DNA from: Desulfosoma sp.
Lineage (GTDB): Bacteria > Desulfobacterota > Syntrophobacteria > Syntrophobacterales > DSM-9756
Direction: 5' to 3'
NCBI GenBank assembly: GCA_037481835.1
Contig: JBBFKW010000024.1
Span: 4,502-27,098 of the forward strand
DNA: 22,597 nt
Shown: positions 856 to 22,502 of the stretch, one piece after another
Numbering within the stretch: the first letter of the stretch is position 1
How the letters are laid out: every line of letters begins with the position of its first letter
Position numbers and translations under genes: made by a program
The notes under the pieces: generated by a model
Databases searched by the model: none
Told to the model about the DNA's origin: nothing
The model's input: only the letters and a program-made list of their open reading frames with translations

Positions 856-2241
856 TCAGATCCCGAGAAGCATTTTGGCCGTTGAAAAGTAGATCATGAG
901 CCCGGTGATGTCCACGATGGTGGTCAAGGCCGGGCTTGCCACAACGGCGGGATCCAGTTTCATTTTGGCCGCCGCCAGGGGCAGCAGGGCGCCGATGAGT
1001 GTGGCCGTGACGACCTGCAATCCCAAGGCTACGGCAATGGCCGCCCCGATCTTGGCCAGGGAATAACCCGCCGGGATTTCGCTTCCCCGGGAAAGAAACA
1101 TGACTTTGGCCCACGAAAGAATCCCCAGGACCACGGCCAGGAGAATGGCCACGTTGAATTCCTTCCAAAGAACCCGGAACGTGTCTCGAGGGGACACTTC
1201 CCTGAGGGCCAAAGCCCGCACGACCACCGTGGCGGCCTGGCTTCCCGTGTTGCCGCCCGTGTCGGCCACCATGGGCATGTACAGCGCCAAAATGAGAAGC
1301 TTCGTGAGGGCGTCTTCGAAGCTGTGGATGATGAGCCCTGATACCAGCCCCAGGGCCGCCAGGCCGACGATCCAGTAAGCGCGGTTCCTGAAATGCACCC
1401 AGGCCGGGGTTTTCAGGTATACGCCCGCTTCATGGCTGCCGGCGATGGCCATGAGTTTTTCCATGTCCTCCGTGTGTTCCTGAGTGATGATGTCGATGGC
1501 ATCGTCGTGGGTGATGATCCCCACCAGGGCGTCCCCGCCGTTGACCACAGGGAGCGCGATGAGGTCGTATTTTTGGATGATCCGGGCCGCGTCTTCCTGG
1601 TCGTCGTCCACGCGGGCGAAAATCACGTCGCGATGCATAATGTCCCGGATCTTGGCGTCCCTTCGGGCCAAGATAAGATCCCTCAAGGACACGAAGCCCA
1701 ACAGACGGCGCTGCGCATCCACCACGTAGGCGTAGTAGATGGTTTCCTTGTCCGGGGCCACTTCCCGGAGGCGCTCGATGGCTTGAGCGGCCGTGAGGTC
1801 CGGCGACAGGGTGGCGTAATCGGAGGTCATGACGGCCCCCGCCGTGCCTTCCTTGTAGGCGGCCAGTCGGCGGATGTCTTCCCGTTCCGCCTGGGCCAGG
1901 GCGGGAAGCACCGATTCCTGGAGCTCCTCGGGCATGCGTTTAAACAGGTCCACCCGATCGTCGGGGGGCATGTCGGAGAGAAGCCGTGCCATCTCTTCGC
2001 GGCGCAACGTCCGGATGACTTCCACCTGGAGGTCTTCGTCCAAGTGGCTGAAGATTTCGGAGCGCTGGGGGGAGGGCGTGTGCCGAAGAACGGCCCACAC
2101 CTCGGCGGGCTCCAAGGCCGACAAACCTTCGGCGATGACGGCCGGGTGGGCCGTCGCACAGTACTCTGCGATGGCCTGGGAGTCCCCTGAGGCGATGAGG
2201 TGCTGCAGGTCGGATGCAATGAGCGGATTTTTGTTCGTCAT
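856..2241 (-). CDS. mgtE: Magnesium transporter MgtE
   Basis: 461 aa. MgtE N-domain (MPPDDRVDL), CBS pair (TAGAVMT, ETIYYAYVVD, KYDLIALPVV, GIITHDD), TM motifs GGNTGSQ and DPAVVASPALTTIVD. GGAGGT SD. Confidence 0.97.
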   Translation of the reverse strand: MTNKNPLIASDLQHLIASGDSQAIAEYCATAHPAVIAEGLSALEPAEVWAVLRHTPSPQRSEIFSHLDEDLQVEVIRTLRREEMARLLSDMPPDDRVDLFKRMPEELQESVLPALAQAEREDIRRLAAYKEGTAGAVMTSDYATLSPDLTAAQAIERLREVAPDKETIYYAYVVDAQRRLLGFVSLRDLILARRDAKIRDIMHRDVIFARVDDDQEDAARIIQKYDLIALPVVNGGDALVGIITHDDAIDIITQEHTEDMEKLMAIAGSHEAGVYLKTPAWVHFRNRAYWIVGLAALGLVSGLIIHSFEDALTKLLILALYMPMVADTGGNTGSQAATVVVRALALREVSPRDTFRVLWKEFNVAILLAVVLGILSWAKVMFLSRGSEIPAGYSLAKIGAAIAVALGLQVVTATLIGALLPLAAAKMKLDPAVVASPALTTIVDITGLMIYFSTAKMLLGI

Positions 2242-2302: not shown

Positions 2303-2434
2303 CTAGGCTCGGGAGGAAGCCCGGAGGATCACGGACTGAGGGGAACGGGGCAGGCGTCGCGACGGATGTTTTTCTCCGAAAGGCCCATGCAGGCCCCGCT
2401 TCGGGCAACTTGGGCTGCCATCGGCGTCGGTCAT
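2303..2434 (-). CDS. Putative mgtE leader peptide (43 aa, 6 Pro)
   Basis: GGAGG SD 8 nt before ATG 2434. MTDADGSPSCPKRGLHGPFGEKHPSRRLPRSPQSVILRASSRA*. The stop lies 6 nt before the anti-SD arm. Confidence 0.4.
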   Translation of the reverse strand: MTDADGSPSCPKRGLHGPFGEKHPSRRLPRSPQSVILRASSRA

Positions 2435-2581
2435 GAAAAAAGCCTCCGTGTTCTGGAAAACAAAGGGGCTCCCGCTGAGCACCCAAACGCCGCTTCTTCT
2501 GCCACAGCAAGCGTCTCAATTCAATACTTTTTCTCGAGGCCGAATTTTTTTCTTGACCGGCTGAAATTTTTCGGTTCCTAT

Positions 2582-2596
2582 GTTAACACTATGAAC
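2582..2596. promoter_or_regulatory. Putative MarR operator 1, overlapping the marR start codon
   Basis: GTTAACACTATGAAC, an imperfect palindrome (GTTnAnAnTnTnAAC). Its exact reverse complement occurs at 3087-3101. Confidence 0.65.
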
Positions 2597-3067
2597 GAAA
2601 AGGCGAACCGATCCGACGACTACTTTGCGTATCAGGTGCGGCGTTTTCAGAGCCTCATGGAGGAGGTGGTCCAGTGCTGCGAAACGCGGGCGGCCTATCT
2701 TTCCAAGAAATTCGGCCTTCCCGGCGCGGAACTGCGCGCTCTGATGCTCTTTCGCGAGGACAAGTATCTGACCGTCAAGGGGATCGCCCTGAAGATGGAT
2801 GTGGCCAAGAGCCGCGTGACCAAGATCGTCGCCGGCCTGCTGGAAAAGGGGCTGGTGAGCCGCATCGACGACCCGGCCGACGGGCGCATCAAGCTCATCA
2901 GCCTGACCCCCGCCGGTCGGGCCGCGTGCGATGAAATCTCCGCCTTTATCGCGACCCTTCACGAAATGATCCTCCGGGAACTGGACCCGGAAGAGCGCAA
3001 ACAGGTTCTGACGGCTCTGGAACGGTTGCGCACGAGCATGGAAGCGGTGAAAGAAAGGATGTTTTAG
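2591..3067 (+). CDS. MarR-family transcriptional regulator
   Basis: 158 aa from ATG 2591. wHTH signature LTVKGIALKMDVAKSRVTKIVAGLLEKGLVSRIDDPADGRIKLISLTPAG. No SD and TATGTT 6 nt upstream, so possibly leaderless. Confidence 0.92.
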   Translation: MNEKANRSDDYFAYQVRRFQSLMEEVVQCCETRAAYLSKKFGLPGAELRALMLFREDKYLTVKGIALKMDVAKSRVTKIVAGLLEKGLVSRIDDPADGRIKLISLTPAGRAACDEISAFIATLHEMILRELDPEERKQVLTALERLRTSMEAVKERMF

Positions 3068-3086: not shown

Positions 3087-3101
3087 GTTCATAGTGTTAA
3101 C
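3087..3101. promoter_or_regulatory. Putative MarR operator 2, just upstream of the dsrE2-like SD
   Basis: GTTCATAGTGTTAAC, the reverse complement of 2582-2596, followed by gAAAGGAGG. Confidence 0.65.
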
Positions 3102-3115
3102 GAAAGGAGGCGTTT

Positions 3116-3673
3116 ATGACGCACGATTTGGCGACGGTGGAAAAACAGGTGGCGGAGATGCGGGCCCAGCTGGAATCACTCCAGAAGAGGGTTCCGTCCA
3201 ACAAGCTTTCCATGGTGGTTTTCAGCGGCGATCTGGACCGCGCCTTGGCGGCCTTCATCATTGCCACGGGCGCCGTGGCCATGGGGATGGAGGTGGTCAT
3301 GTTTTTCACCTTCTGGGCCACGCCGATTCTGCGCGACCCGGCCAAGAAGGTGGAAGACAAGGATCTCATGGGCAAGATGTTCGGCACCATGCTGCCCAAG
3401 GGAGCCTGTTCCGTGAAGCTTTCCAAGATGAACATGGGCGGCTTGGGCACGGCCATGATGAAGAACCTCATGAAGCAGAAAAACGTGGCCAGCTTGGAGC
3501 AAATGATCGCCTTGGCGGGGGAACTGGGCGTGCAGATTTACGTGTGCGAGCTTTCCATGGAGCTCATGGGGTTCAAGCGCGAGGAGATGATTCAATACCC
3601 GTCCATGGATTTTTGCGGGGTGGCCAAATTCCTGGAAGAAGCCATGGACAGCCGCGTGCAGCTTTTCATCTAG
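3116..3673 (+). CDS. DsrE2/DrsE_2-type (DsrE/F/H-like) sulfur-transfer protein
   Basis: 185 aa. VFSGDLDRALAAFIIATGAVAMG, MFFTFW, LSKMNMGGLG, conserved Cys in VCELSMELMG, C-terminal LFI. Strong SD AAAGGAGG. Confidence 0.9.
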   Translation: MTHDLATVEKQVAEMRAQLESLQKRVPSNKLSMVVFSGDLDRALAAFIIATGAVAMGMEVVMFFTFWATPILRDPAKKVEDKDLMGKMFGTMLPKGACSVKLSKMNMGGLGTAMMKNLMKQKNVASLEQMIALAGELGVQIYVCELSMELMGFKREEMIQYPSMDFCGVAKFLEEAMDSRVQLFI

Positions 3674-3744
3674 ATCCCCGGCCCCACGGGGGGCGAGGGG
3701 GAAATCGGGGACGTGTTCCCGCAACAAGAAAGGGAGGATGGATC

Positions 3745-3987
3745 ATGAGCGAGGCCGTTCGAGCAGACAAGGTGATGGATTTGAAGGGGCTTCCGTGTCC
3801 CATGCCGGTGGTGAAGGTGAGCAAGGGGATCAAGGACGTTGCGGTGGGGCAGATCCTGGAAGCGCAGACCACCGATCCGGGCTCTCTCACCGATTTCCCC
3901 GCCTGGGCCCGGACCAGCGGCAATGAAATCGTGGACACCATCCAAGAAAACGGGATCATCAGGATTTTCATCAGGCGAAAAGTTTGA
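3745..3987 (+). CDS. tusA: TusA/SirA-family sulfur carrier
   Basis: 80 aa from ATG 3745 (SD GGGAGG). DLKGLPCPMP (CPxP motif), TTDPGS, DFPAWAR. Confidence 0.92.
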   Translation: MSEAVRADKVMDLKGLPCPMPVVKVSKGIKDVAVGQILEAQTTDPGSLTDFPAWARTSGNEIVDTIQENGIIRIFIRRKV

Positions 3988-4101
3988 GTCACGGCACGGC
4001 CTGAAAGGCCCGGCGCGCGCTCCTTTCCCCTTCGGGGGCAGGGGCCCCAACCGGGCCGAAAGGCCGGGGTGCGCGCGCCCCAAGAGCCGGAAGGGGGATC
4101 C

Positions 4102-4812
4102 ATGCAGACCGCCTACTATCTGATTCTGGTTCCCATGGTGTATGCGGCTTTCGCCGTTTTTGTCTTGGGCACGGCGGTGCGTCTCATCCAGACGGCCCGC
4201 CGGCCCCCCCACCCGACGACATTGCAGATCTTCCCCAAAAAAGAACCCGCGTGGCTGTATGCCGTCGCGGACACGTTTCTCATGCCGTCCGTTCTTCGCC
4301 ACACCCCCGTCCTGTGGTTCTTCCTGGCCGTTTTTCATCTCGCGGTGCTCCTGCTCATCATCGGGCATCTGGAGCTTTTCGGGGATTGGGCGGTTTTCCA
4401 AGTGGTGCCCCATGAAGTTTTCCTGGGCAGAGGGTTCGTGGGCCTGGCGGCGGCGGTCTCCTTGCTCTATCTCCTTGTGCGCCGTTTCCACGCCCCGGTT
4501 CGGGACCTTTCCGTACCCGAAGACTATTATCTCTTGATCCTTCTTTTCCTCACGGTCATTTTCGGAAGCCAGATGGATTGGGCCCGTCGTTGGTACGACT
4601 ACGACGTCATGGGTGTGGGCGCCTACCGGGCCTACCTCTGGAGTCTCGTCACCTTCAAGCCTTTCGTGCCCGACGAAATCCTCTATTCGGGCCATGCCTT
4701 CATGCTGGTGCTCCACGTCTTTTTCGCCAACCTGTTTCTCATGGTCTTTCCCTTCACGAAAATGATGCACACGTTCTTGGCCCTGCCCATGAACCTCTTG
4801 AAGCGAGGGTAG
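4102..4812 (+). CDS. NarI/DsrM-like di-heme b membrane subunit
   Basis: 236 aa from ATG 4102. About 5 hydrophobic helices and four His in the NarI/DsrM pattern: FHLAVLLLIIGH and LHVFFANLFLMVFPFTKMMH. Also LVRR...VR..S.PEDY. Confidence 0.88.
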   Translation: MQTAYYLILVPMVYAAFAVFVLGTAVRLIQTARRPPHPTTLQIFPKKEPAWLYAVADTFLMPSVLRHTPVLWFFLAVFHLAVLLLIIGHLELFGDWAVFQVVPHEVFLGRGFVGLAAAVSLLYLLVRRFHAPVRDLSVPEDYYLLILLFLTVIFGSQMDWARRWYDYDVMGVGAYRAYLWSLVTFKPFVPDEILYSGHAFMLVLHVFFANLFLMVFPFTKMMHTFLALPMNLLKRG

Positions 4813-4814
4813 TC

Positions 4815-6077
4815 ATGGACCTGCAAACAAGAGAGGATCTCCTCAAGCTTTTCCAGACCAAGCTCAACCGGGCCATGGTGTACTACCTGGAAACGTGCAC
4901 CCGGTGCGGGGTGTGCACCACGGCCTGCCACGTGTACCAATCCATGCCGCAGGCCCGATACATCGCCGCCTACCGCGCGGAAATCGTTCGGCGCATCTAC
5001 AAGAAATATTTCAAGGGCCAGGGGAAGGTGTGGCCGGCTTACGGGGAAGCCAAGGAACTGACCGAAGCGGCCTTGCAAGAGCTCTACGATGCGGCCTACT
5101 CCTGCACGGGATGCCGGCGCTGTATGGTCTATTGCCCCTTCGGGATCGACACCCAAATGATCATGTCCATCGCCAAGCTGCTCCTGGTGGGGGCCCATGC
5201 GGAACCGGAAATCCTGACCCTTCTTGCGGATACGTCCATCGAAAAGGGGCGTTCCCTGGAATTTTTCAAGGAAGGGTTCCTGCAAGGCGTCAAGAACCTG
5301 GAGCAGAAGGTTCTCGAAAAATGGAAGATGGAGGCGGAAGGCAAGACCGTCATTCCCGTGGATGTGGAAGGAGCCGACCTCCTTTATGTCGCCTTGGCCG
5401 GCGCCCATTCCATCATTCCAGCCGCGGCGGTCTTCAACGCCGCCGGAGAAAACTGGACTTTGAGCTTCTTCGAAGCGGTCAATTTCGGTGCCTTCGTGGG
5501 AGATCCGACCCGAACCAAGCTCATCCTCGATCGGATTGTAAACGAAGCCTTGAGGCTCAAGGTCAAGGAAGTGTGCATCTGCGAATGCGGCACGGCCTAT
5601 CGCGTCATGAAGCAGCTTTCCGGCACCCAGCCCTTTAAGGTGTCCTCGGTGACCGAAGTCCACGCGCGGTATCTGCGCGAGGGCCGTATTCGGGTGAGTA
5701 AGGAAGCTTTCCGAGGGCAGGCGGTCACCTACCACGATCCTTGCCAAATCGCGAGAAACGGCGGTATTTTGGAAGAGCCCCGCTTCATCCTTCAGCATCT
5801 CACCGACGACTACCGGGAAATGGCTCCCGATCCCCGTTACAACTACTGCTGCGGCGGCGGGGGCGGCTTGGTGGCCCTGGGCGAGGATACCCTGGATTTT
5901 CGCATGAAATCCGCAAGGGTCAAAGCCGAACAGGTCCAAAGAACGAAAGCGACCCTTTTGGCGACCGCCTGCGAAAACTGCCATACCCAGCTGAGCGACC
6001 TGAATCGGCATTACGGCTTGGGCGTGAACGTCCAGTTTCTCACTTCCATGGTTGCCGACGCTTTGGTTGTGTCCTGA
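4815..6077 (+). CDS. DsrK/HdrD-like Fe-S, CCG-domain heterodisulfide-reductase-type catalytic subunit
   Basis: 420 aa from ATG 4815, 2 nt after the previous stop. Ferredoxin motifs CTRCGVCTTAC and CTGCRRCMVYCP; CCG-domain motifs ECG, YHDPC, CCGGGGG, ACENC. Confidence 0.9.
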   Translation: MDLQTREDLLKLFQTKLNRAMVYYLETCTRCGVCTTACHVYQSMPQARYIAAYRAEIVRRIYKKYFKGQGKVWPAYGEAKELTEAALQELYDAAYSCTGCRRCMVYCPFGIDTQMIMSIAKLLLVGAHAEPEILTLLADTSIEKGRSLEFFKEGFLQGVKNLEQKVLEKWKMEAEGKTVIPVDVEGADLLYVALAGAHSIIPAAAVFNAAGENWTLSFFEAVNFGAFVGDPTRTKLILDRIVNEALRLKVKEVCICECGTAYRVMKQLSGTQPFKVSSVTEVHARYLREGRIRVSKEAFRGQAVTYHDPCQIARNGGILEEPRFILQHLTDDYREMAPDPRYNYCCGGGGGLVALGEDTLDFRMKSARVKAEQVQRTKATLLATACENCHTQLSDLNRHYGLGVNVQFLTSMVADALVVS

Positions 6078-6373: not shown

Positions 6374-7645
6374 ATGAAAAGAGTCTTCATTTCGTTCGTC
6401 ATTGTTCTGGGGTTTTTGGGAACGGCCGGCTCGGTTTCGGCCACCAACGGGGACAACCTGATCGCCGTCGGTCCGGTGGCGCGTGCCATGGGGGGCGTGG
6501 GCGTCGCCTCCCCGCAGGATGCCATCAGCGCCGTTTTCGTGAACCCGGCGGCCATGTGTTTCGGACCGTATTGTCCTTCTTCGGAGATGAATTTCGGCGG
6601 CACCCTTTTCATGCCCAAGGTGGACACTCGGATCAGTTTTCCCGCTTCGGGCACGGTCATTTCGGCGGACAGCGAAGACAAGGTGTATCCCATCCCGGCC
6701 ATCGGCCTTTCGGTGCCCATCACGGACCGTCCGCCTTTTTGGCGGTTCGGCCTTTCCGCCTATGGGGTTTCCGGTCTGGGCGTGGATTACAAGGGCACGG
6801 CGGTGGATCAGGCATCGTTTTACAATTTCGGACCCATGGGGTCTTTCCCCTTGGTTGCCGGGGCCTACACTGAACTGGCCATCATGAAATTCGCTCCGGC
6901 CGTCGCCTTCCAGCCTTTTGAAAAGGTGTCCTTCGGTTTGGCCCTCCACGTGGACTACGCCACCTTGGACCTGCGCCAGGGATCCTCGTCCGGCTACGGC
7001 GTGGGCGTCCAACTGGGCATGATCTACAAAGCGACGGACAACGTCTCTTTCGGTCTCAGTTACACCTCACCCCAGAACGTCAATCACGATGATGTGGCCG
7101 ATTTCGACGGAGACGGCAGCCTGGATCGACTCAAATTGGAATCGCCGCACCAGGTCGCCATCGGAGCGGCTTACCGTTTCAACAACAAACTGTTGCTGGA
7201 AGCGGACGTGAAATGGTTGAACTGGTCCGACGCCAACGGTTATGAGGAATTCGACTGGGACGACCAATGGGTGTTGGGCATTGGAGCCCAATACAAGCCC
7301 TTGCCTAAGCTGACCCTGCGCGCCGGATACTGTTACGGGAAGAACCCTCTCAATACCCACGACGGTTTCAACGGGCAGATGCCGGTGTCCGTCCAGGGAA
7401 AAACCATGCCCGCCTATTACTACGAAACTTTCCGAATCGTGGGATTTCCCGCCATCGTGGAGCATCATCTCACCTTCGGATTCGGCTACGATTTCACGCC
7501 GCGCTTTTCGGTGCATGCGGGGTATGTCCACGCGTTCGAAAAGAGCGTGGACGAATCGGGAACGGACATCGCCGGGCAGCCGGTTTCTCTGAAATCCACC
7601 TTGAGCGAAAACAGTTTGGATTTCGGCTTTACGTGGCGCTTCTAA
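6374..7645 (+). CDS. FadL/TodX-family outer-membrane beta-barrel for hydrophobic substrates
   Basis: 423 aa from ATG 6374 (SD AAGGAG). Signal peptide ending VSA|TNG, ARAMGG, NPA motif, amphipathic strands, LTLRAGY, C-terminal Phe (FTWRF). Confidence 0.9.
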   Translation: MKRVFISFVIVLGFLGTAGSVSATNGDNLIAVGPVARAMGGVGVASPQDAISAVFVNPAAMCFGPYCPSSEMNFGGTLFMPKVDTRISFPASGTVISADSEDKVYPIPAIGLSVPITDRPPFWRFGLSAYGVSGLGVDYKGTAVDQASFYNFGPMGSFPLVAGAYTELAIMKFAPAVAFQPFEKVSFGLALHVDYATLDLRQGSSSGYGVGVQLGMIYKATDNVSFGLSYTSPQNVNHDDVADFDGDGSLDRLKLESPHQVAIGAAYRFNNKLLLEADVKWLNWSDANGYEEFDWDDQWVLGIGAQYKPLPKLTLRAGYCYGKNPLNTHDGFNGQMPVSVQGKTMPAYYYETFRIVGFPAIVEHHLTFGFGYDFTPRFSVHAGYVHAFEKSVDESGTDIAGQPVSLKSTLSENSLDFGFTWRF

Positions 7646-7658
7646 AGGCCGTGCCGGG

Positions 7659-7708
7659 GCGGCCTGCCGGGGGTTTTTCCCCTTGAGGGAAAAATTCCCG
7701 GCGGCCGC
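7659..7708 (+). terminator. Long hairpin after the OM channel gene (probable end of the sulfur cluster transcript)
   Basis: GCGGCC-t-GCCGGGGGTTTTTCCC-cttga-GGGAAAAATTCCCGGC-GGCCGC, about 13 nt after the stop; weak U-tract. Confidence 0.55.
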
Positions 7709-7745
7709 TTCGGGCCGTGTCAAGCCTTTGCCGAAGACGGCTGGG

Positions 7746-7774
7746 TTGCCGTCGGCCTGCCGTGGAGGTATATG
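7746..7774 (+). promoter_or_regulatory. Putative sigma70 promoter of the ThyA-like gene
   Basis: TTGCCG-17 nt-TATATG (TATGCT lies 2 nt further), about 55 nt upstream of the ATG. Confidence 0.4.
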
Positions 7775-7827
7775 CTTAGGTGCGCTGCGGTGCGCGGACG
7801 GCGATGGTGGATGCAAAGGGGAGGGCC

Positions 7828-8607
7828 ATGCTCAAGGCGGTATTTCTGAAGGCGCGGGACATTCCGGATTTGTGGTACCAGCTGGTGCGCAAGGCCGTGG
7901 AAGAAGGCCGGGAATACAAGGTGGACAAGGGAAGCACTCCCACCAAGCGATGGGAGCTGGACTTCGTTTCGGCCCAGATCACCCATCCGGGCACCCGCCC
8001 TTTGGAGCCGGACATTCCGCCCGGGGTGGGTATTCCCAACCCCGTGGAGCCGGGTTATGCGGAAAAGTATCTCCCCTATTACATGACCGATGCGGCCCAG
8101 CCGGGAGAACACTACACCTACGGGCAGGACTTGGCCTGGCAGATCGAGTGGGTGATTGACTATTACCGCACCCACGGTCCCGGAACCAAGCACTGCTATA
8201 TGACGGTCGGGCGCCCCGAAAGCCTCCTTTTCTATGACACGTCGGTGGACTACGAGGAGGTGATCCGCGTGGCGGATCGGGCGACGGGCAGGGTTGTGCG
8301 CACGCGGAGTATCTCCAACGCTTTCAACAAGAACGAACCGGGAACCACCCAATGCCTGCGCGGCGTGGACACCGCCATCAAGTACGGCAAGCTCCACTTC
8401 AGCGTCCATTTCCGCAGTTGGAATCTGTGGAACGGACTTCCCGCCAACCTGGCCTGCCTCCAGCTGGTCAAAGAGTATATGGCCCAGCAGATCGGCGTGG
8501 AAGACGGGGAGATGTTCATCACCTGCCTCAAGCTGGGCCTGGCGGAAGCTTACTTCGACCTGGCCCGACTGCGACTGTACCTTAAGAGCCGGGACGAGAA
8601 ATCCTGA
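7828..8607 (+). CDS. Thymidylate-synthase-fold protein (archaeal/deltaproteobacterial ThyA type) with non-canonical active-site residues
   Basis: 259 aa from ATG 7828 (SD GGGAGG). YTYG, QIEWVI, QCLR, GKLHFSVHFRSW, GLPANL, EYMA..IGVE.G. RSWD is replaced by RSWN and HxY by GxA. Confidence 0.88.
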   Translation: MLKAVFLKARDIPDLWYQLVRKAVEEGREYKVDKGSTPTKRWELDFVSAQITHPGTRPLEPDIPPGVGIPNPVEPGYAEKYLPYYMTDAAQPGEHYTYGQDLAWQIEWVIDYYRTHGPGTKHCYMTVGRPESLLFYDTSVDYEEVIRVADRATGRVVRTRSISNAFNKNEPGTTQCLRGVDTAIKYGKLHFSVHFRSWNLWNGLPANLACLQLVKEYMAQQIGVEDGEMFITCLKLGLAEAYFDLARLRLYLKSRDEKS

Positions 8608-8734
8608 GGAGCGTCATAGGCCCCTTTCGGCGGGACGACAAAGTTCTCGCCCCGCACCCCGCCCCTTGAAGGCTGTCCCCCGGATACGCGTGGTCCCGCA
8701 CCCCGAACAATGTCTCTTTCGTGGGCGAAAGTTT

Positions 8735-9055
8735 TCAGCGCAGGCGCACCGCCGTGCCGCTCACGCTCACCATGAGCATGCCGTTCTTTTCCCCCAGAAC
8801 CTCGTAGTCGATGTCAATGCCCACGACGGCGTCGGCCCCCAGACTCAGGGCGGCCGCCTTGAGCTCCTCGAAGGCGGTTTCCCGGGCCCGCCGCAGCTCT
8901 TTCTCGTAGGCGGCGGACCGGCCGCCCACGATGTCGCGGATGCCGGCGAAAAGATCTCGAAAAAGATTGGCCCCCATGATGGCTTCGCCGGTGACGATAC
9001 CGAGATAGGCCGCAATGGAGCGCCCTTCGACGCTTGGGGTGGTGGTGAGAATCAT
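8735..9055 (-). CDS. ybjQ: YbjQ/UPF0145-family protein
   Basis: 106 aa from ATG 9055 (SD GAGGAGG). [53 protein letters not shown]. Confidence 0.93.
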
Positions 9056-9110
9056 CGGTGTGCCTCCTCGCTCTTCGTGTTGCCATGGGTTACCCCGTCG
9101 GTTATTTTGC

Positions 9111-9139
9111 AACGTACGAAATGAGTTTCGCGAGAGCAA
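9111..9139 (-). promoter_or_regulatory. Putative sigma70 promoter of ybjQ
   Basis: Minus strand reads TTGCTC-17 nt-TACGTT in the AT-rich divergent gap. Confidence 0.4.
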
Positions 9140-9195
9140 TATTTTTTGCGCACCGCGCCGATCCGCCGGCGGCGATCGAGGGAGGAACGAAGACT

Positions 9196-10089
9196 ATGAG
9201 TCGAAAGCGTTTCGTCGTTTTGGGAGCGATGCTCCTTTTGGGAGCTTTTCTTTGGACCCTTTGCGGAGAAGTGGCCGAAGCGGCCCGGCTTGGCGGCGGG
9301 AAATCTTTCGGAAGCCGTCCCAGCTATCAGCGGAGCGCTCCGGCGCCGTCCCGATCCTACAGCTCCCCGGAAAGGGATGCGGGGCAGACGCCCTTGGGGA
9401 CCCTGCCTCGTTCCCCGATGTCTTCCCCGACCCGTTCGTGGGGGGGCATGTTGGGCGGGCTTCTCCTGGGCGGCTTGATCGGGTCCTTGCTTTTCGGGGG
9501 CGCCCATGCGTGGGGCGGGCCGAGTCTTTTGGACCTCGCGGTCATCGGCGGAGGCTTGTTTCTCCTCTTTCGCTTTCTGAAAGCCCGGCGCCTGGCGACG
9601 CAATCGGCCTCCGGTTACGGGCCCTCGCCTTTTCAAGCGCCGGGAGGGGCTCCTTTCGGAACGGACAGAGCCCGGCCTTCGGGGCCCGAGGCGGCATCGG
9701 CGTTCCATGAGCGGTCCTGGCCCGAGGGCTTCGATCCCCAAAGCTTCCTGGAGCAGGCCAAAGCGCTCTACGTCCGGTTGCAGGAAGCGTGGGACCGGCG
9801 GGATCTGAGGGCCATCGAAGAGGCCGTCTCCCCGGAGGTCTTCGAAGAAATCCGACGCCAAGCCGAAGAGGACCCTCGGCCGAGCCGAACCGCCCTTTTG
9901 TGGATCAACCCGGAGCTCTTGGAGGTTCGAAACCTGGACGGACAGACCGTGGCTTCCGTGCTCTTCGACGTCATGATGCGTGAAACCGAAGAGGAAATGG
10001 CCAAGCAGGTCCGGGAGCTCTGGCATTTTCGCCGGCAAGGCGCCGGCGATGTCTGGATCGTGGAAGGCATCCAGCAGGTGGCGGCCTGA
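9196..10089 (+). CDS. Tim44-like domain membrane protein
   Basis: 297 aa from ATG 9196 (SD GGAGG). Signal peptide then ARLGGGKSFG, Gly-rich TM segments, FDPQSFLEQAKALYVRLQEAWD, ELWHF, WIVEGIQQ. Confidence 0.88.
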   Translation: MSRKRFVVLGAMLLLGAFLWTLCGEVAEAARLGGGKSFGSRPSYQRSAPAPSRSYSSPERDAGQTPLGTLPRSPMSSPTRSWGGMLGGLLLGGLIGSLLFGGAHAWGGPSLLDLAVIGGGLFLLFRFLKARRLATQSASGYGPSPFQAPGGAPFGTDRARPSGPEAASAFHERSWPEGFDPQSFLEQAKALYVRLQEAWDRRDLRAIEEAVSPEVFEEIRRQAEEDPRPSRTALLWINPELLEVRNLDGQTVASVLFDVMMRETEEEMAKQVRELWHFRRQGAGDVWIVEGIQQVAA

Positions 10090-10303: not shown

Positions 10304-10395
10304 CGCCCGCCGAACGACCGGGTCTTCTGCGACCCTTTTAGTGACACTCATAAGGTCCGTAACCTTGAACCTTGAGACAGAAAGGCGGTTCGCGC

Positions 10396-13300
10396 ATGCC
10401 CAGGAGAGACGACATCCACAAGGTGCTCATCATCGGTTCAGGTCCCATCGTCATCGGTCAAGCCTGCGAATTCGACTATTCGGGCACCCAGGCCTGCAAG
10501 GCCTTGCGTAAGCTCGGCTATAAGATCGTGCTCGTCAATTCCAACCCGGCGACCATCATGACGGATCCGGGCATGGCGGACGTGACCTACCTGGAGCCGC
10601 TCACCGTGGAATCCTTGGAAAAGATCATCGCCAAGGAGCGACCCGACGCCGTGCTCCCGAACCTGGGCGGCCAGACCGGACTGAACCTGACGGCACAGCT
10701 GCACCGGCAGGGCATTTTAGACCGTTACGGCGTGCAGATCATCGGCGTGCAGGCCGACGCCATCGAACGCGGGGAAGATCGCATCGCCTTCAAGGAAACC
10801 ATGAATCGGCTGGGTATCGAAATGCCCCGGAGCCGGCCCGCCTTCAGCGTGGAAGAAGCCGAAGAGATCGCCGCGCAACTGGGTTACCCGGTGGTCATTC
10901 GGCCGGCGTACACCCTCGGCGGCACGGGAGGCGGCCTGGTCTACAACGTGGAAGAACTGCGCACGGTGGCCAGTCGCGGCATCGCGGCGAGCATGGTGGG
11001 CCAGATCCTCGTGGAAGAGTCGGTCCTGGGCTGGGAAGAGCTGGAGCTGGAGGTGGTGCGGGACGCCAAGAACCAGCGGATCACCGTGTGTTTCATCGAA
11101 AACGTGGACGCCATGGGGGTGCACACGGGCGATTCCTTTTGCACGGCGCCCATGCTCACCATCGACCCCGCCCTGCAGAAACGCCTCCAGGACGCCTCCT
11201 ATGCCATTGTGGAGGCCATCCAAGTCATCGGCGGCACCAACATCCAGTTCGCCCACGACCCCAGGACGGGTCGTGTGGTCGTCATCGAAATCAACCCGAG
11301 AACGTCCCGCTCGTCGGCCCTGGCATCCAAAGCCACGGGCTTTCCCATCGCTCTCATTTCGGCCATGCTGGCCGCCGGGGTCACGCTGGACGAGATTCCC
11401 TACTGGAAAGAAGGCACCTTGGAAAAGTACGCCCCATGGGGGGACTACGTGGTGGTCAAGTTCGCACGGTGGGCCTTTGAAAAGTTTCCCGGGTCCCTGG
11501 ACCGGCTGGGGACCCAGATGCGGGCCGTGGGCGAAGTGATGAGCATTGGGAAGAATTTCAAAGAGGCCTTGCAAAAGGCTGTGCGGTCCCTGGAGATCGG
11601 CCGCTACGGTCTTGGGTTCGCCAAGGACTTCCACACCAAGTCCTTGGACGAGCTCCTGGAGATGGTTTCGGAGCCGAGCAGCGAACGCTACTTCCTGATT
11701 TACGAAGCGCTGCGCCGCGGGGCGGACATCCAAGAGCTTTACGAAAAGACGCACATCAAGCCGTATTTCCTGGAACAGATGAAGGAGCTGGTCGTTCTGG
11801 AGGAAGAGATCCTCACCTACCGAGGTCAGGAACTCCCCGAGGACCTGCTGCGGCGCGCCAAGCGTGACGGCTTCAGCGATCGGTATTTGGCCCAGCTTTT
11901 GGGCCTTTCCGAGACGGCCGTTCGGGAGCGGCGAAAGAGCCTGGGCATCGTCCAAGGCTGGCACATCCTTCCCGTGAGCGGCGTGGAAAACGCGGCCTAT
12001 TACTATTCCACCTACAACGCCCCGGACGAAGTGAAAACCAGCGACAAGCCCAAGGTCATGGTCATCGGTGGGGGTCCCAACCGCATCGGCCAGGGGATCG
12101 AATTCGACTATTGCTGCGTCCATGCCGCCTTTGCGCTGCGAGACCTGGGCTACGAAACCATCATGGTCAACTGTAACCCGGAAACGGTGTCCACCGACTA
12201 CGACACGTCGGACAAGCTCTACTTCGAACCCGTCACCGTGGAAGACGTGCTGGCCATTTACGAAAAGGAAAAGCCCGTGGGGGCCTTGATCCAGTTCGGC
12301 GGCCAGACGCCGCTGAACATCGCCCGCGAATTGGCCGAAGCGGGCGTGAAGATCCTGGGCACATCCCCGGATGCCATCGATTTGGCGGAAGATCGGGACC
12401 GGTTCCGCAAGCGCATGGAGGCTCTGGGGATTCCCATGCCGGAATCGGGCATGGCGAGCACCCTGGCAGAAGCCTTGGAAGTGGCCAAACGCATCGGCTA
12501 CCCCCTGATGGTCCGGCCGTCCTACGTCCTTGGGGGACGGGGGATGGAAGTGGTCTACGATGAAGGGATGCTTCGCGAATACGTCCTGGCAGCCGTGGGG
12601 GTCACGCCCGATCGGCCCATCCTCATCGACCGATTCCTGGAAGACGCCATCGAAGCCGAAGCGGACGCCTTGGCTGACGGGGTCGACGCCTTCGTCCCGG
12701 CCGTCATGGAACATATCGAAAGGGCCGGCATCCATTCGGGCGATTCGGCCTGCGTCATCCCCCCCATTAGTATCCCGGCGCGCCATCTGGAAACCATTCG
12801 CGAATACACCCGCAAGATCGCCGTGGAACTGGGCGTCGTGGGCCTCATGAACATCCAGTACGCCATCGCCAAGGATACGGTCTATGTGCTGGAGGCCAAC
12901 CCTCGCGCTTCCCGAACCGTCCCCCTGGTTTCCAAGGTGTGCAACATTCCCATGGCGCGCTTGGCCACCGAGCTCATGCTGGGGAAGACCCTGGCGGATC
13001 TCGGCCTTTCGCCGACCCGGCACCTCGGCCATTACGGGGTCAAGGAAGCCGTGTTTCCGTTCAACATGTTTCCCGAGGTGGACCCGGTGTTGGGACCGGA
13101 AATGCGTTCGACGGGGGAAGTCCTGGGCCTGGCCGATTCCTTCGGTCTAGCTTTCTACAAAGCCGAGGAAGCGGCCCTGCAGCGGCTTCCGGAAGAGGGC
13201 TGTGTGCTTTTTACGGTGACCGACAAGGATAAGCCGGCGGCCTTGGAAGTGGCCAAGCGCTTCCACCAAATGGGCTTCTCCATACGCGCCACCGGGGGCA

Positions 13301-13599
13301 CCTGGCGGTTTTTTAAGGAAAACGGCCTCCCCTGCCAACACATCGACAAGATGCACGAGGGGCGGCCCAATATTGTGGATGCCGTCAAAAACGGCGAGAT
13401 CCAGTTGGTCATCAACACGCCCAGCGGCCGAAGGAGTGAACACGACGATTCCTATATCCGGAAAGCCGCGGTGAAATATAAAATTCCGTACATCACGACG
13501 ATTGCCGCAGCGGAAGCGGCGGCTCGAGGGATCGAGGCCTGGCGGCGGGGCCACGGCGATGTGAAGTCCCTTCAGGAATACCATGCATCGATCCGCTAA
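10396..13599 (+). CDS. carB: Carbamoyl-phosphate synthase large subunit
   Basis: 1067 aa from ATG 10396. MPRR.DI.KVLIIGSGPIVIGQACEFDYSG, NSNPATIMTD, second half GGGPNRIGQGIEFDYCC, GPEMRSTGEV, C-terminal MGS domain. Confidence 0.98.
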   Translation: MPRRDDIHKVLIIGSGPIVIGQACEFDYSGTQACKALRKLGYKIVLVNSNPATIMTDPGMADVTYLEPLTVESLEKIIAKERPDAVLPNLGGQTGLNLTAQLHRQGILDRYGVQIIGVQADAIERGEDRIAFKETMNRLGIEMPRSRPAFSVEEAEEIAAQLGYPVVIRPAYTLGGTGGGLVYNVEELRTVASRGIAASMVGQILVEESVLGWEELELEVVRDAKNQRITVCFIENVDAMGVHTGDSFCTAPMLTIDPALQKRLQDASYAIVEAIQVIGGTNIQFAHDPRTGRVVVIEINPRTSRSSALASKATGFPIALISAMLAAGVTLDEIPYWKEGTLEKYAPWGDYVVVKFARWAFEKFPGSLDRLGTQMRAVGEVMSIGKNFKEALQKAVRSLEIGRYGLGFAKDFHTKSLDELLEMVSEPSSERYFLIYEALRRGADIQELYEKTHIKPYFLEQMKELVVLEEEILTYRGQELPEDLLRRAKRDGFSDRYLAQLLGLSETAVRERRKSLGIVQGWHILPVSGVENAAYYYSTYNAPDEVKTSDKPKVMVIGGGPNRIGQGIEFDYCCVHAAFALRDLGYETIMVNCNPETVSTDYDTSDKLYFEPVTVEDVLAIYEKEKPVGALIQFGGQTPLNIARELAEAGVKILGTSPDAIDLAEDRDRFRKRMEALGIPMPESGMASTLAEALEVAKRIGYPLMVRPSYVLGGRGMEVVYDEGMLREYVLAAVGVTPDRPILIDRFLEDAIEAEADALADGVDAFVPAVMEHIERAGIHSGDSACVIPPISIPARHLETIREYTRKIAVELGVVGLMNIQYAIAKDTVYVLEANPRASRTVPLVSKVCNIPMARLATELMLGKTLADLGLSPTRHLGHYGVKEAVFPFNMFPEVDPVLGPEMRSTGEVLGLADSFGLAFYKAEEAALQRLPEEGCVLFTVTDKDKPAALEVAKRFHQMGFSIRATGGTWRFFKENGLPCQHIDKMHEGRPNIVDAVKNGEIQLVINTPSGRRSEHDDSYIRKAAVKYKIPYITTIAAAEAAARGIEAWRRGHGDVKSLQEYHASIR

Positions 13600-20546: not shown

Positions 20547-20996
20547 TCAAAAGGCTTTGCGACTGTCCAAGAGGATGGTGACCGGACCGTCGTTGGTCAA
20601 ATGGACCGCCATGGTTTCTTGGAAAACGCCCGTTTCCACGGGAACGGTGTGATCGCGAAGGGCTTGGACGAAAGCGCCGTAGAGGCGTTTCGCCTGATCC
20701 GGAGGGGCCGCGTCCACGAAGGAAGGTCGACGGCCCTTGCGGCAATCGCCCCACAGGGTGAACTGGGAGACGACCAAGACGGCGCCCCCGATGTCGAGGA
20801 CGGACCTGTTCAATTTGTCATCATCGTCGGGAAAGATCCGAAGATGGACGATCTTTTCCGCAAGATACCGGGCGTCTTCGTCCGTATCCCCTCGCCCCAC
20901 GCCGACGAAGACCAACAAACCGCGGTTGACGGCCCCGACGCTCCGGCCGCCCACTTCAACGGAGGCTTTGGAAACCCTTTGCACGACGGCCCGCAT
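20547..20996 (-). CDS. dtd: D-aminoacyl-tRNA deacylase
   Basis: 149 aa from ATG 20996. [41 protein letters not shown]. Confidence 0.96.
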
Positions 20997-21017
20997 GATC
21001 CCTTCCTCCCGGGCGTT

Positions 21018-21047
21018 TTGACCTTGGCAGCCGGCGCAGGATATAAA
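21018..21047 (+). promoter_or_regulatory. Putative promoter of the radical SAM gene
   Basis: TTGACC-18 nt-TATAAA. Confidence 0.4.
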
Positions 21048-21095
21048 AGCCGCGCCTGGATTGGCAAACGGTTTTGACGGGAAGGACCAAAGTCC

Positions 21096-22502
21096 ATGAT
21101 CCGAAAACCTACGGTGCTCCTCATCAACCCGTGGATCACCGATTTTGCGGCCTACGACCTGTGGGCCAAGCCGCTGGGGCTCTTGCTCCTGGGCGCCTTG
21201 GTGCGGGAATCCGGGTGCCGGGTGTTTTTCGTGGATTGCGTGGACCGACATGATCCGGACACCGTGGGCCGCCAGGATGTGGTGCCCGGCCGGGACGACG
21301 CTTACGGGACGGGAAAGTATCCGAAAATGCCCATCCCCGTCCCTGAAGTTCTCGCCGACGTGGGTCGCCCTTTTTTTCGCTACGGCATTCACCCGGAAAG
21401 CTTTCGAAAGAAGCTTTCCGCCCTCCCCAAGCCGGACCTGGTGTGCGTGACGAGCCTCATGACCTATTGGTACCCGGGCGTGCAGGAAACCATCGCGGTC
21501 ATCAAGGATGTCTTCCCGAAGGTTCCCGTGTGGCTCGGGGGCATCTACGCTCGGCTGTGCCCGGAACACGCCCGGCAACGAAGCGGCGCGGATTGGGTCT
21601 TTTCCGGGCCCTTGTCCCATGCGGCGAAGGCCCTGAAAAATCTTTTCGGCGATGGGTTCACGGAGACGCCGGGGTGGGACGCCTTGGCCCAGGCGCCCCC
21701 TCCCGCCGTGGATCTCATGGAACGCCCCGCTTACGGACCGCTCCTTTTGAGCCTGGGCTGCCCCTACCGCTGCCCGTACTGCGCCTCGGCCATCCTGCAG
21801 CCGGAAAGGGTGTGCTTTTCGGCGCGGCGGATTTTCCAAAACCTCCTCGATCTTTATGAAAAGGCGGGGGTGCGGGATTTCGCCTTTTACGACGACGCAT
21901 TGCTTCTTACAGGAGGCGCGGCCCTTCGGGAGCTGGCGAAAGAGGTCCGTCGGCACGGACTTTCCGTGCGGTTTCATACCCCAAACGCGCTCCATGTGAA
22001 CGCCTTGGCCGATCCCGGCTGGAGTCGGCTGCTCTTCGAAAGCGGCTTTGTCACCCTTCGGCTGGGTTTGGAAACAACCCGTTCGGAACGCCACAAAAAA
22101 TGGGGGGGCAAGACGGACGTGGAGGGGTTTTTTCGGGCCATGGACGCCTTGAGCCGTGCCGGCTTTTCCCCGGAACGCATCGGGGTGTACCTCCTTGCGG
22201 GCCTCCCGGATCAAAACCCGGAAGAAGTGTGGGAAGGGATCGAGGTCGTGAAAAACGCAGGGGCCATGCCGTACGTGGCTGAGTTTTCTCCCATTCCGGG
22301 AACGGCGGTGTGGCCGGAGGCCGTCTCGCGGAGTCCCTTCCCCCTGGAGGAGGAACCCCTGACCCATAACAATTCCTTTTTTGCCTGCAGGCGCCCGAAC
22401 TTTACCCTGCACGACCTGGAGTGCCTGAAACGGCAGGCTCGAAACGCCCGCCGCACCCTTAAGACCGCACGGGGCCAAGGTTCCAGGACACAGGCCGGAT
22501 GA
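21096..22502 (+). CDS. B12-binding-domain radical SAM protein
   Basis: 468 aa. N-terminal [50 protein letters not shown] (CxxxCxxC), FYDDALL, RLGLET. Confidence 0.9.

Follow-up and report, generated by a model that had tools for sequence, protein, structure and literature searches.

A thymidylate synthase-fold protein with a rebuilt active site, candidate accessory enzyme of a non-canonical thymidylate module in Desulfosoma and its relatives

The gene studied here occupies positions 7828 to 8607 (plus strand) of a 22,597-nucleotide stretch of DNA from Desulfosoma sp. (GenBank assembly GCA_037481835.1, contig JBBFKW010000024.1, positions 4,502 to 27,098), hereafter called the window. It encodes P0001, a 259-residue protein with a thymidylate synthase (TS) fold that belongs to a distinct clade of the short archaeal-type ThyA family, hereafter called clade B, in which the active site has been rebuilt. 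P0001 is best explained as a functional enzyme, not a relic, and the reading put forward here, to which I give a probability of roughly 45%, is that dUMP is its substrate, that it is an accessory enzyme of a non-canonical thymidylate module and that it uses its cofactor in a non-classical mode. Conservation, phylogeny, co-occurrence and gene linkage were computed in this work, and it is from these that I infer the substrate, cofactor and product. The gene and the codons that define its active site are as follows.

7828..8607, plus strand: coding sequence of P0001, a TS-fold protein of clade B (RSWN/GxA) within the short archaeal-type ThyA family
8188..8196, plus strand: codons of K121-H122-C123, the partner-subunit phosphate arm (R126-R127-I128 in E. 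coli)
8239..8349, plus strand: 37-residue insertion (residues 138–174) 5' of the nucleophile codon, which the model shows as a beta-hairpin and a short helix
8353..8355, plus strand: codon of C176, the catalytic nucleophile (equivalent to C146), in the motif T-T-Q-C-L-R
8413..8424, plus strand: codons of R196-S197-W198-N199, equivalent to R166-S167-C168-D169, with Asp169 replaced by Asn
8446..8448, plus strand: codon of N207, equivalent to the uracil-specifying N177 and kept
8524..8544, plus strand: codons of C233-L-K235-L-G237-L-A239, the rebuilt H207/Y209 strand

An earlier reading of this DNA made from its letters (hereafter the sequence-only reading) had taken P0001 for a TS homologue with a remodelled nucleotide pocket, and on this the fold model and the residue alignment agree. 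The AlphaFold2 model, computed from a 150-sequence alignment (mean pLDDT 95.3, pTM 0.92), has the TS fold and matches solved structures of the TS superfamily with Z scores of 18–23. The closest structures are those of the dCMP hydroxylase AfhB of phage HY126 (9iqu, Z 23.1; 9iqc, Z 22.4; in both cases rmsd 2.2 over 209 aligned residues), followed by the CMP hydroxymethylase MilA (5jnh_B, Z 20.1, rmsd 1.8, 203 aligned) and by many ThyA chains (Z about 18, range 17.8–18.3; rmsd 2.1–2.5; 192–196 aligned). Sequence profiles recognize the protein below their thresholds: PF00303 matches only residues 175–234, at 19.2 bits against a cut-off of 24.3, and the NCBIfam model of methanogen-type TS, TIGR03283, reaches 53 bits (E 2.9e-14) against a cut-off of 174.55. 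The domain library search found no domain besides the TS core. A search of the ESM Atlas returned TS clusters only, a PHROGs search gave weak TS families only, and tblastn gave P0001 no match among 50,697 phage records.

When P0001 was compared with E. coli ThyA (sequence taken from NC_000913.3), phmmer aligned its residues 181–250 with E. coli residues 151–220 without a gap, that is, at a +30 offset, and MAFFT paired C176 with C146, R196 with R166, S197 with S167, N199 with D169, N207 with N177, G237 with H207 and A239 with Y209. The gapless mapping proposed by the sequence-only reading is therefore borne out, as is its claim that the catalytic Cys, the phosphate-binding Arg-Ser pair and the uracil-specifying Asn are kept. 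Y98 corresponds in addition to Y94, and K121/H122 to R126/R127, the latter also in the profile alignment. P0001 thus has in common with the E. coli enzyme its fold, the Cys nucleophile, R166, S167, N177 and Y94, whereas D169, H207, Y209, R126 and R127 are all replaced. In classical TS, H207 and Y209 are ligands of the deoxyribose 3'-OH, and D169 is a folate/pterin ligand that is needed to open the imidazolidine ring. The folate-binding segment that carries W80 and W83 is missing from P0001, as it is from all short TSs.

The relatives of P0001 numbered 368 at E<=0.001 among 786 candidates in a word-indexed search, and 474 in an exhaustive search of representatives. One group comprises about 45 proteins of roughly 252–265 residues from Thermodesulfobacteriota and Desulfobacterales that are 72–86% identical to P0001; another is a large set of 216–230 residues, 46–51% identical, which the sources label thymidylate synthase. 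The latter are bacterial members of the short archaeal or methanogen-type TSs (TIGR03283), the parent family of clade B, whose biochemistry is described as little studied in the available text of PMC9012536. Both kinds share the same compact fold, the P-C-L-R-G segment near the nucleophile, F-R-S-W, the uracil Asn and E-x-Y-x-Y-G, but where canonical short TSs have RSWD, HxY (in the strand S-K-G-L-H-L-Y), N-Q at R126/R127 (N-Q-A at positions 121–123) and PPC, P0001 has RSWN, GxA, the clade-specific K-H-C, TQC and the 37-residue insertion. The previously reported change of PPC to TQC holds in so far as the clade is compared with canonical short TSs; E. coli ThyA itself has A-P-C at this place. 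Position 173, equivalent to E. coli L143, is Thr or Ser in the clade.

A census of these motifs in 269 family proteins shows that the two states do not mix. RSWD, the uracil Asn and HxY occur together in 161 proteins, and RSWN with the uracil Asn in 45, in which the His is replaced by Gly (42), Ser (2) or Asn (1) and the Tyr209 position holds Ala (26), Gln (8), Val (6) or, in the other five, Ser, Glu or Asp, never Tyr. None of the 269 rows combines the two states; 35 of them are gapped across the motifs (fragments or intein-split sequences) and the remaining 28 carry minor or partly gapped states. In 164 canonical relatives D169, H207 and Y209 are invariant, bar one Y209W. In a quick IQ-TREE phylogeny of 87 rows (midpoint-rooted, with long outgroup branches and SH-aLRT supports only), all 23 RSWN rows form one clade with SH-aLRT support of 98. 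Sister to this clade is an RSWS/HxY protein in which the 37-residue insertion is already present, and the next group outward combines the insertion with RSWD/HxY, so that the insertion predates the switch of the active site. Together with these insertion-bearing relatives (31 rows, support 100) the RSWN clade is nested among canonical short RSWD/HxY TSs. On this quick tree, then, P0001 descends from the short-TS family, even though its TIGR03283 score is under the cut-off.

The substitutions are fixed under strong constraint. Of twelve orthologue pairs, the nine whose dS was unsaturated gave dN/dS values of 0.03–0.10 (0.14–0.29 inside the 37-residue insertion), and none of the 14 orthologous loci that were translated has a broken reading frame. 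The sequence-only reading had asked whether RSWN and GxA go together in a selectively constrained clade; they do, RSWN being accompanied by G/S-x-x in 45/45, and the substitutions are neither strain-specific, nor under relaxed selection, nor the product of chance or error, since they are fixed across the clade. That P0001 is a decaying gene or a sequencing artefact is refuted by these frames and ratios, by the 72–86% identity and by the confident model, and I leave it practically no weight. Twelve clade residues (H95, K121, H122, C123, R129, Q175, H194, N199, C210, C233, K235 and G237) are each present in at least 91% of the 45 members, and ten of them are seen in no more than 10% of the 164 canonical relatives; C123 is somewhat commoner there (26/164), and R129 and H122 are found in 15/164 each. 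The new fixed residues include three Cys (C123, C210, C233) and three His (H95, H122, H194). Invariant in both groups are R41, E94, Y96, Y98, C176, L177, R178, F195, R196, S197, W198 and N207, the sole exception for Y98 in the clade being one Y98H (Y98 in 44/45). A repurposed pseudoenzyme, one of the options offered earlier, is unlikely given that the residues of covalent catalysis are invariant and the new Cys and His fixed.

One member of the clade, from Desulfonema magnum (locus L036, 6714–8483), is interrupted by a 330-residue intein with a LAGLIDADG endonuclease, which splits the invariant E-H-Y-T-Y-G precisely at the Y96/T97 junction. Inteins typically sit at such sites in indispensable proteins. 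The protein is annotated merely as a homing endonuclease, and many canonical short TSs (550–1014 residues) also bear inteins. A search for longer forms, made for fusions of the P0001 family to other domains, gave only 6 such intein-bearing forms, and upstream-extended frames of 333–489 residues in relatives were rejected as fusions, being non-coding read-through in GC-rich DNA. In one Syntrophobacteraceae lineage, however, the clade-B gene runs into a C-terminal 2x[4Fe-4S] ferredoxin domain (P0003, 330 residues; locus L026, about 3689–4596, the same as L011). On another contig of the same assembly (L042/L016) the clade-B gene ends normally, unfused, and P0003 is either a real fusion variant or the result of a strain mixture.

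What other thymidylate genes accompany P0001 was examined in its own genome (G000), a 3.63 Mb assembly that is 99.4% complete and whose named relatives are Desulfosoma and Desulfacinum, both strict anaerobes. No ThyX and no canonical ThyA was found in it. The sequence-only reading had asked for a second TS-like gene, and one exists, though not of the canonical kind: the only other PF00303 match (38 bits) is a 491-residue fusion on contig C2, made of an MtrA-like N-terminal domain, a TS domain and a C-terminal PterinBD-DUF4346 domain, in which D169 is replaced by Asn and H207 and Y209 are absent. It is also the only match to PF14251 (DUF4346) in the genome, and its gene sits between those of a dCMP deaminase and a HAD hydrolase (locus L001, 662–3443, minus strand). 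P0001 is hence not the sole TS-type protein of its genome. Contig C1 carries a gene for ParB-CE ('ParB-like catalytic effector', PF24392; L045, 1369–1983, minus strand), for which sequence comparison with the PDB gave chance-level matches only and the ESM Atlas returned its own family name only. A thymidylate kinase gene is present. PADLOC found no defence-system match for P0001, ParB-CE or the fusion; it noted a resemblance of the dCMP deaminase to the deaminase part of a dCTPase model.

The distribution of these genes was surveyed in 96 genomes of the order, the counts below excluding G000; f1 denotes the family of the window, and f2 and f3 two other families. ThyX is present in 75/81 genomes of f2 and in none of f1 (0/8) or f3 (0/6). 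The fusion-type TS (frames of 494–572 residues, 624 in G000) shows the opposite pattern, occurring in 7/8 genomes of f1, 6/6 of f3 and three of f2 (G016, G036, G037), the f1 genome in which it was not seen being a fragmented assembly (G001). ParB-CE is found in 8/8 genomes of f1, 6/6 of f3 and the same three f2 genomes plus G042. Across the order ParB-CE thus tracks the fusion, and both are anticorrelated with ThyX. P0001-like genes (E<=1e-5) are present in 7/8 f1 genomes, in 4/81 f2 genomes, where all are 37–48% identical, and in 0/6 f3 genomes. In G000, the fusion, ParB-CE and P0001 are all present and ThyX is absent. One f1 genome assembled as a single contig (G005) and all six f3 genomes possess the fusion and ParB-CE while lacking both ThyX and a P0001-like gene. 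Because the fusion is on its own in these seven, it is the probable housekeeping TS, to which the P0001 clade would be an accessory. Overall, genomes with clade B have ParB-CE in 18/18 cases and ThyX in 0/18, and the ten reached through their loci conform (ParB-CE 10/10, ThyX 0/10); the fusion was detected by PF00303 in four of five of these further genomes and within the locus in two more, three falling outside the test.

It could be argued that P0001 is an ordinary TS of odd appearance, or even the main TS of its genome, as its clade mates are labelled 'thymidylate synthase' by their sources and its parent family consists of what look like real synthases. In a sample of 401 Desulfobacterota genomes, 116 have a P0001-family match (only 4 of clade B, all in f1), 239 have ThyX and only 6 a canonical ThyA (over 370 bits), while a P0001-family match and ThyX coincide in 11 genomes, a figure read from two lists. 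Canonical short TSs appear to be the sole TS in roughly 100 of the 401, which supports the parent family as genuine TSs. Yet the three residues that are invariant in the canonical relatives are all changed in P0001, and the relatives without P0001 have neither ThyX nor ThyA either and depend on the fusion, which makes this explanation very improbable. Two genomes of another family (f13; G365 and G462) contain, beside a fusion-type TS, a 266-residue short TS with an insertion and canonical RSWD and H-A-Y (L056, 2013–2813, and L057, 1957–2754, both minus strand), so that a second short TS next to the fusion is not unique to the RSWN clade.

The gene neighbourhood provides the best available evidence on the substrate. 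Among 15 clade-B loci, four (L028, L029, L032, L036) have, on one strand, the P0001-type gene followed by those of the HAD protein, ParB-CE, dCMP deaminase and the fusion. The HAD protein in these four is pyrimidine-nucleotidase-like; its gene follows the P0001-type gene after 12 nt in Desulfonema, and L028 shows 4-nt overlaps both between the HAD and ParB-CE genes and between the deaminase and fusion genes. In L035 the dCMP deaminase gene is directly downstream of the P0001-type gene, with the fusion and ParB-CE divergent, and in L033 the deaminase gene alone is directly downstream. In six of 15 loci, then, the gene immediately precedes either dCMP deaminase or the complete module, which makes dUMP the likely substrate. 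The other nine loci are unlinked to the module; four of them belong to close f1 relatives and two are on contigs shorter than 5 kb.

This linkage goes against the suggestion, made on the strength of the two large-to-small changes at H207 and Y209, that the substrate is UMP, a 3'-substituted uridylate or uridine within RNA or DNA. Both 3'-OH ligands are indeed replaced by small residues, R126 has become Lys as in the ribo-preferring MilA, and in one Desulfobacterales lineage (L030, 1303–3742; L031, 1408–4045) the clade-B gene is followed by genes for a CBS-pair protein and RtcA, the RNA 3'-terminal phosphate cyclase. The RtcA neighbour is however confined to that lineage, the Arg/Ser pair suited to the phosphate of a free 5'-nucleotide is invariant, and S197 is kept, whereas the ribo preference of MilA needs Ala at the S167 position, according to the available part of PMC5175136. 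The loss of H207 is moreover shared by the fusion, and as this probable housekeeping enzyme carries the same changes, the substitutions need not signal another nucleotide substrate. I regard a ribonucleotide or nucleic acid substrate as quite improbable. MilA and BcmA, the CMP hydroxymethylases, resemble P0001 in the TS fold and in the Lys for R126' but have Asp at N177, where P0001 has Asn, and Ala at S167, where it has Ser, and MilA retains His216 and Tyr218, both lost in P0001. The same part of PMC5175136 calls these two residues 'extremely conserved' across TS, CH, dUH, MilA and BcmA.

The likeness of P0001 to the fusion extends to the active site. Both have the TS fold, keep the Cys, the Arg and Asn177, and have D169N together with Gly or Ser at H207, and the two co-occur, often in the same gene cluster. 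In the fusion family the D169 position is Asn in 43/43 rows (within the motif RTHN in 40), the H207 position is Gly in 17, Ser in 22, Thr in 1, Ala in 1 and a gap in 2, never His, and the Cys and the uracil Asn are kept. In contrast with P0001, the fusion has the N-terminal MtrA-like and the DUF4346 'pterin-binding' domains and the motifs RTHN and S/G-I/L-D, and it occurs without P0001. P0001 lacks the three-domain PF14251 architecture and displays the R-x-x-N plus G/S signature (RSWN, G237). As the fusion family occupies a separate deep branch of the tree and its flanking motifs are unrelated to those of clade B, D169N and H207G/S seem to have been reached independently, a convergence that must be considered provisional. 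The other TS-superfamily proteins in the alignment, namely E. coli ThyA, RB69 gp48, PhT2 (an Acinetobacter phage), RHph_I34 (a Rhizobium phage), Xp15 gp36 and the PS2 dCMP hydroxymethylase, have all kept His207. A second flavin-type signature, His at the Y164 position, was considered and dropped, RHph_I34 (D169N) having Phe and Xp15 (D169) His.

The proposed history and role of P0001 can be outlined as follows. Clade B would have arisen by duplication inside the short archaeal-type ThyA family, with subsequent rebuilding of the active site. The residues kept are those for covalent catalysis on a uracil 5'-nucleotide, namely the nucleophilic Cys, the Arg/Ser pair that binds phosphate, the Asn that specifies uracil, Tyr98 and Glu94; those lost are the Asp that activates methylene-tetrahydrofolate (D169N) and both ligands of the sugar 3'-OH (H207G, Y209A); and H95, K121, H122, C123, R129, Q175, H194, C210, C233 and K235 are the fixed set gained. 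P0001 would act on dUMP within a module formed by dCMP deaminase, the MtrA-like/TS/DUF4346 fusion, ParB-CE and the HAD phosphatase, which would replace ThyX in these lineages. In the classical mode CH2-H4folate is both the carbon and the hydride donor. Because the fusion shows the same D169N and H207G/S, P0001 and the fusion may share a non-classical mode, and a changed C1 carrier or cofactor, already mentioned as an option in the sequence-only reading, is the leading idea. The product would most likely be dTMP or an intermediate towards it, with P0001 as a second isozyme or helper.

A more far-reaching version, speculative and rather unlikely, is that clade B and the fusion represent a third mechanistic route to thymidylate, ThyA-like in fold and Cys-dependent, in which the methylene is not reduced by the hydride of tetrahydrofolate the electron source being a flavin-type (2,4-dioxo) cofactor, a ferredoxin, or a thiol or metal centre in a protein. 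It fits the convergent D169N and H207G/S, the fixed C123, C210, C233, H95, H122 and H194, the 2x[4Fe-4S] ferredoxin fusion of one lineage, and the fact that the module takes the place of ThyX, a flavin enzyme. On chemical reasoning, the amide of an asparagine suits a 2,4-dioxo (flavin-like) ring better than a 2-amino-4-oxo pterin. The new Cys and His and the ferredoxin fusion would be a weak hint at redox or metal chemistry.

The loss of the cofactor-site Asp can also be read in another way, namely that P0001 makes some other C5-modified (deoxy)uridylate (hydroxymethyl, hydroxy or other) for a modified base or metabolite, from which the HAD protein might release the nucleoside. Among phage TS homologues, D169N is the mark of those that bind a flavin and use O2 to hydroxylate dCMP, and it has been proposed as the diagnostic residue of a folate-to-flavin switch (PMC13326640, in its available part). 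These 5-hydroxy-dCMP synthases (HY126 AfhB, RB69 gp48) share D169N and the compact TS fold with P0001, and AfhB, followed by MilA, is ahead of ThyA among the structures closest to the model; the gene is in addition accessory to the probable housekeeping TS and directly precedes the pyrimidine-nucleotidase-like HAD gene in 4/15 loci. On the other hand, as far as the available description goes, the phage enzymes have Asp at N177 (for cytosine), retain H207, R126/R127 and a Tyr or Phe at position 209, carry Glu at L143 and depend on O2, whereas P0001 keeps the uracil-specifying Asn, is non-acidic at position 173 and comes from an anaerobe lineage, in which O2-dependent hydroxylation is unlikely. 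The compactness of short TSs may explain the structural ranking, the presumed dTMP-making fusion has the same D169N and H207G/S, and no glycosyltransferase, dNMP kinase or other hypermodification gene was linked in the loci annotated. A different C5 product is therefore a possibility that I consider doubtful, and dUMP-directed thymidylate chemistry remains the preferred reading.

The residues at 121–123 raise the question of whether P0001 is instead a non-catalytic or regulatory partner that forms a heterodimer with the TS domain of the fusion and lends it K121, H122 and C123. In classical TS dimers R126' and R127', the equivalents of K121 and H122, reach into the site of the partner (established knowledge; see also the available part of PMC5175136), residues 121–123 are clade-specific, and clade B is found only where the module is present (18/18). 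A scaffold would nevertheless not need C176, R196, S197, N207, Y98 and E94, which are invariant in the 45 members bar the single Y98H, and the fusion works without P0001 in G005 and f3. Such a role appears improbable.

Several points weigh against an accessory dUMP enzyme with a non-classical cofactor mode. By analogy with E. coli TS, in which D169N leaves the imidazolidine ring of the cofactor unopened, as the title of PDB entry 1bjg has it, P0001 could be a poor methylase or no methylase. The genome has a DHFR-like gene (56.5 bits), which fits dihydrofolate-producing TS chemistry somewhere in the cell. The cofactor mode supposedly shared with the fusion is deduced from two residues, P0001 having neither the MtrA-like nor the DUF4346 domain. 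In the window and in the loci of f1 relatives (L021–L024) the P0001 gene is unlinked to the module, and the 18 clade-B genomes stem from few lineages and are not independent.

To my knowledge, the established enzymes of thymidylate synthesis are two only, ThyA and ThyX, both of which are drug targets and markers of the evolution of DNA metabolism. Clade B is, as far as I could establish, the first cellular member of the TS superfamily seen to have lost both sugar ligands; it has also lost the folate-activating Asp and is yet under strong purifying selection, with new fixed Cys and His, and it is tied to a widespread, unstudied module that stands in for ThyX in entire families of sulfate reducers. 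To judge from sequence comparisons, the chemistry of P0001 is likely to be new, and the gene set that accompanies it probably makes the thymine base of DNA. A full-text literature search, whose coverage left out most subscription journals, found no publication on the TS/DUF4346–ParB-CE module. Since cultured strains carry clade B or the module, its chemistry is directly testable; those named in the loci are Desulfacinum infernum DSM 9756, D. hydrothermale DSM 13146 and Desulfonema magnum 4be13.

Two further features of the window lie immediately upstream of the P0001 gene.

7815..7825, plus strand: Shine-Dalgarno-like purine run AAAGGGGAGGG, read from the sequence, ending 2 nt 5' of the ATG
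7653..7714, plus strand: stem-loop directly 3' of the FadL-like gene (stop at 7645), with sub-threshold Rfam hairpin matches

The open reading frame is intact, as previously described, and runs from ATG 7828 to TGA 8605–8607 behind the purine-rich, Shine-Dalgarno-like run. This ATG was preferred to an in-frame GTG at 7780 because homologues of P0001 begin with the same Met-Leu-Lys. In the window the gene is solitary, between the FadL-like porin gene and a convergent YbjQ gene. The stem-loop, a strong hairpin that weakly matches several miRNA models far under their gathering scores, is probably the terminator of the FadL-like gene and as such would give P0001 a transcript start of its own. Rfam, searched for a riboswitch or leader, had no match at the gathering score in the whole window, and a promoter and terminator scan of 7400–9200 showed nothing useful near P0001 and no promoter-like site at 7653–7714.

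The gene for the large subunit of carbamoyl-phosphate synthase (carB; 10372–13599), which belongs to pyrimidine synthesis, is 1.8 kb downstream of P0001, a proximity that is not kept in the other annotated clade-B loci. At 20547–22502 two long open reading frames overlap on opposite strands. The plus-strand frame (21096–22502) encodes a B12-binding radical-SAM protein, and of the 643-residue minus-strand frame (20547–22478) only the C-terminal 145 residues match D-Tyr-tRNA deacylase, most of this frame being probably non-coding. Towards the other end of the window, downstream of genes for MgtE (856–2241, minus strand) and a MarR regulator (2366–3067), lies a sulfur-metabolism cluster (3094–6077) that comprises a TusA-domain protein, encoded by the C-terminal part of 3094–3987, a NarI/DsrM-like membrane protein (4069–4812) and a DsrK-like Fe-S/CCG protein (4578–6077).

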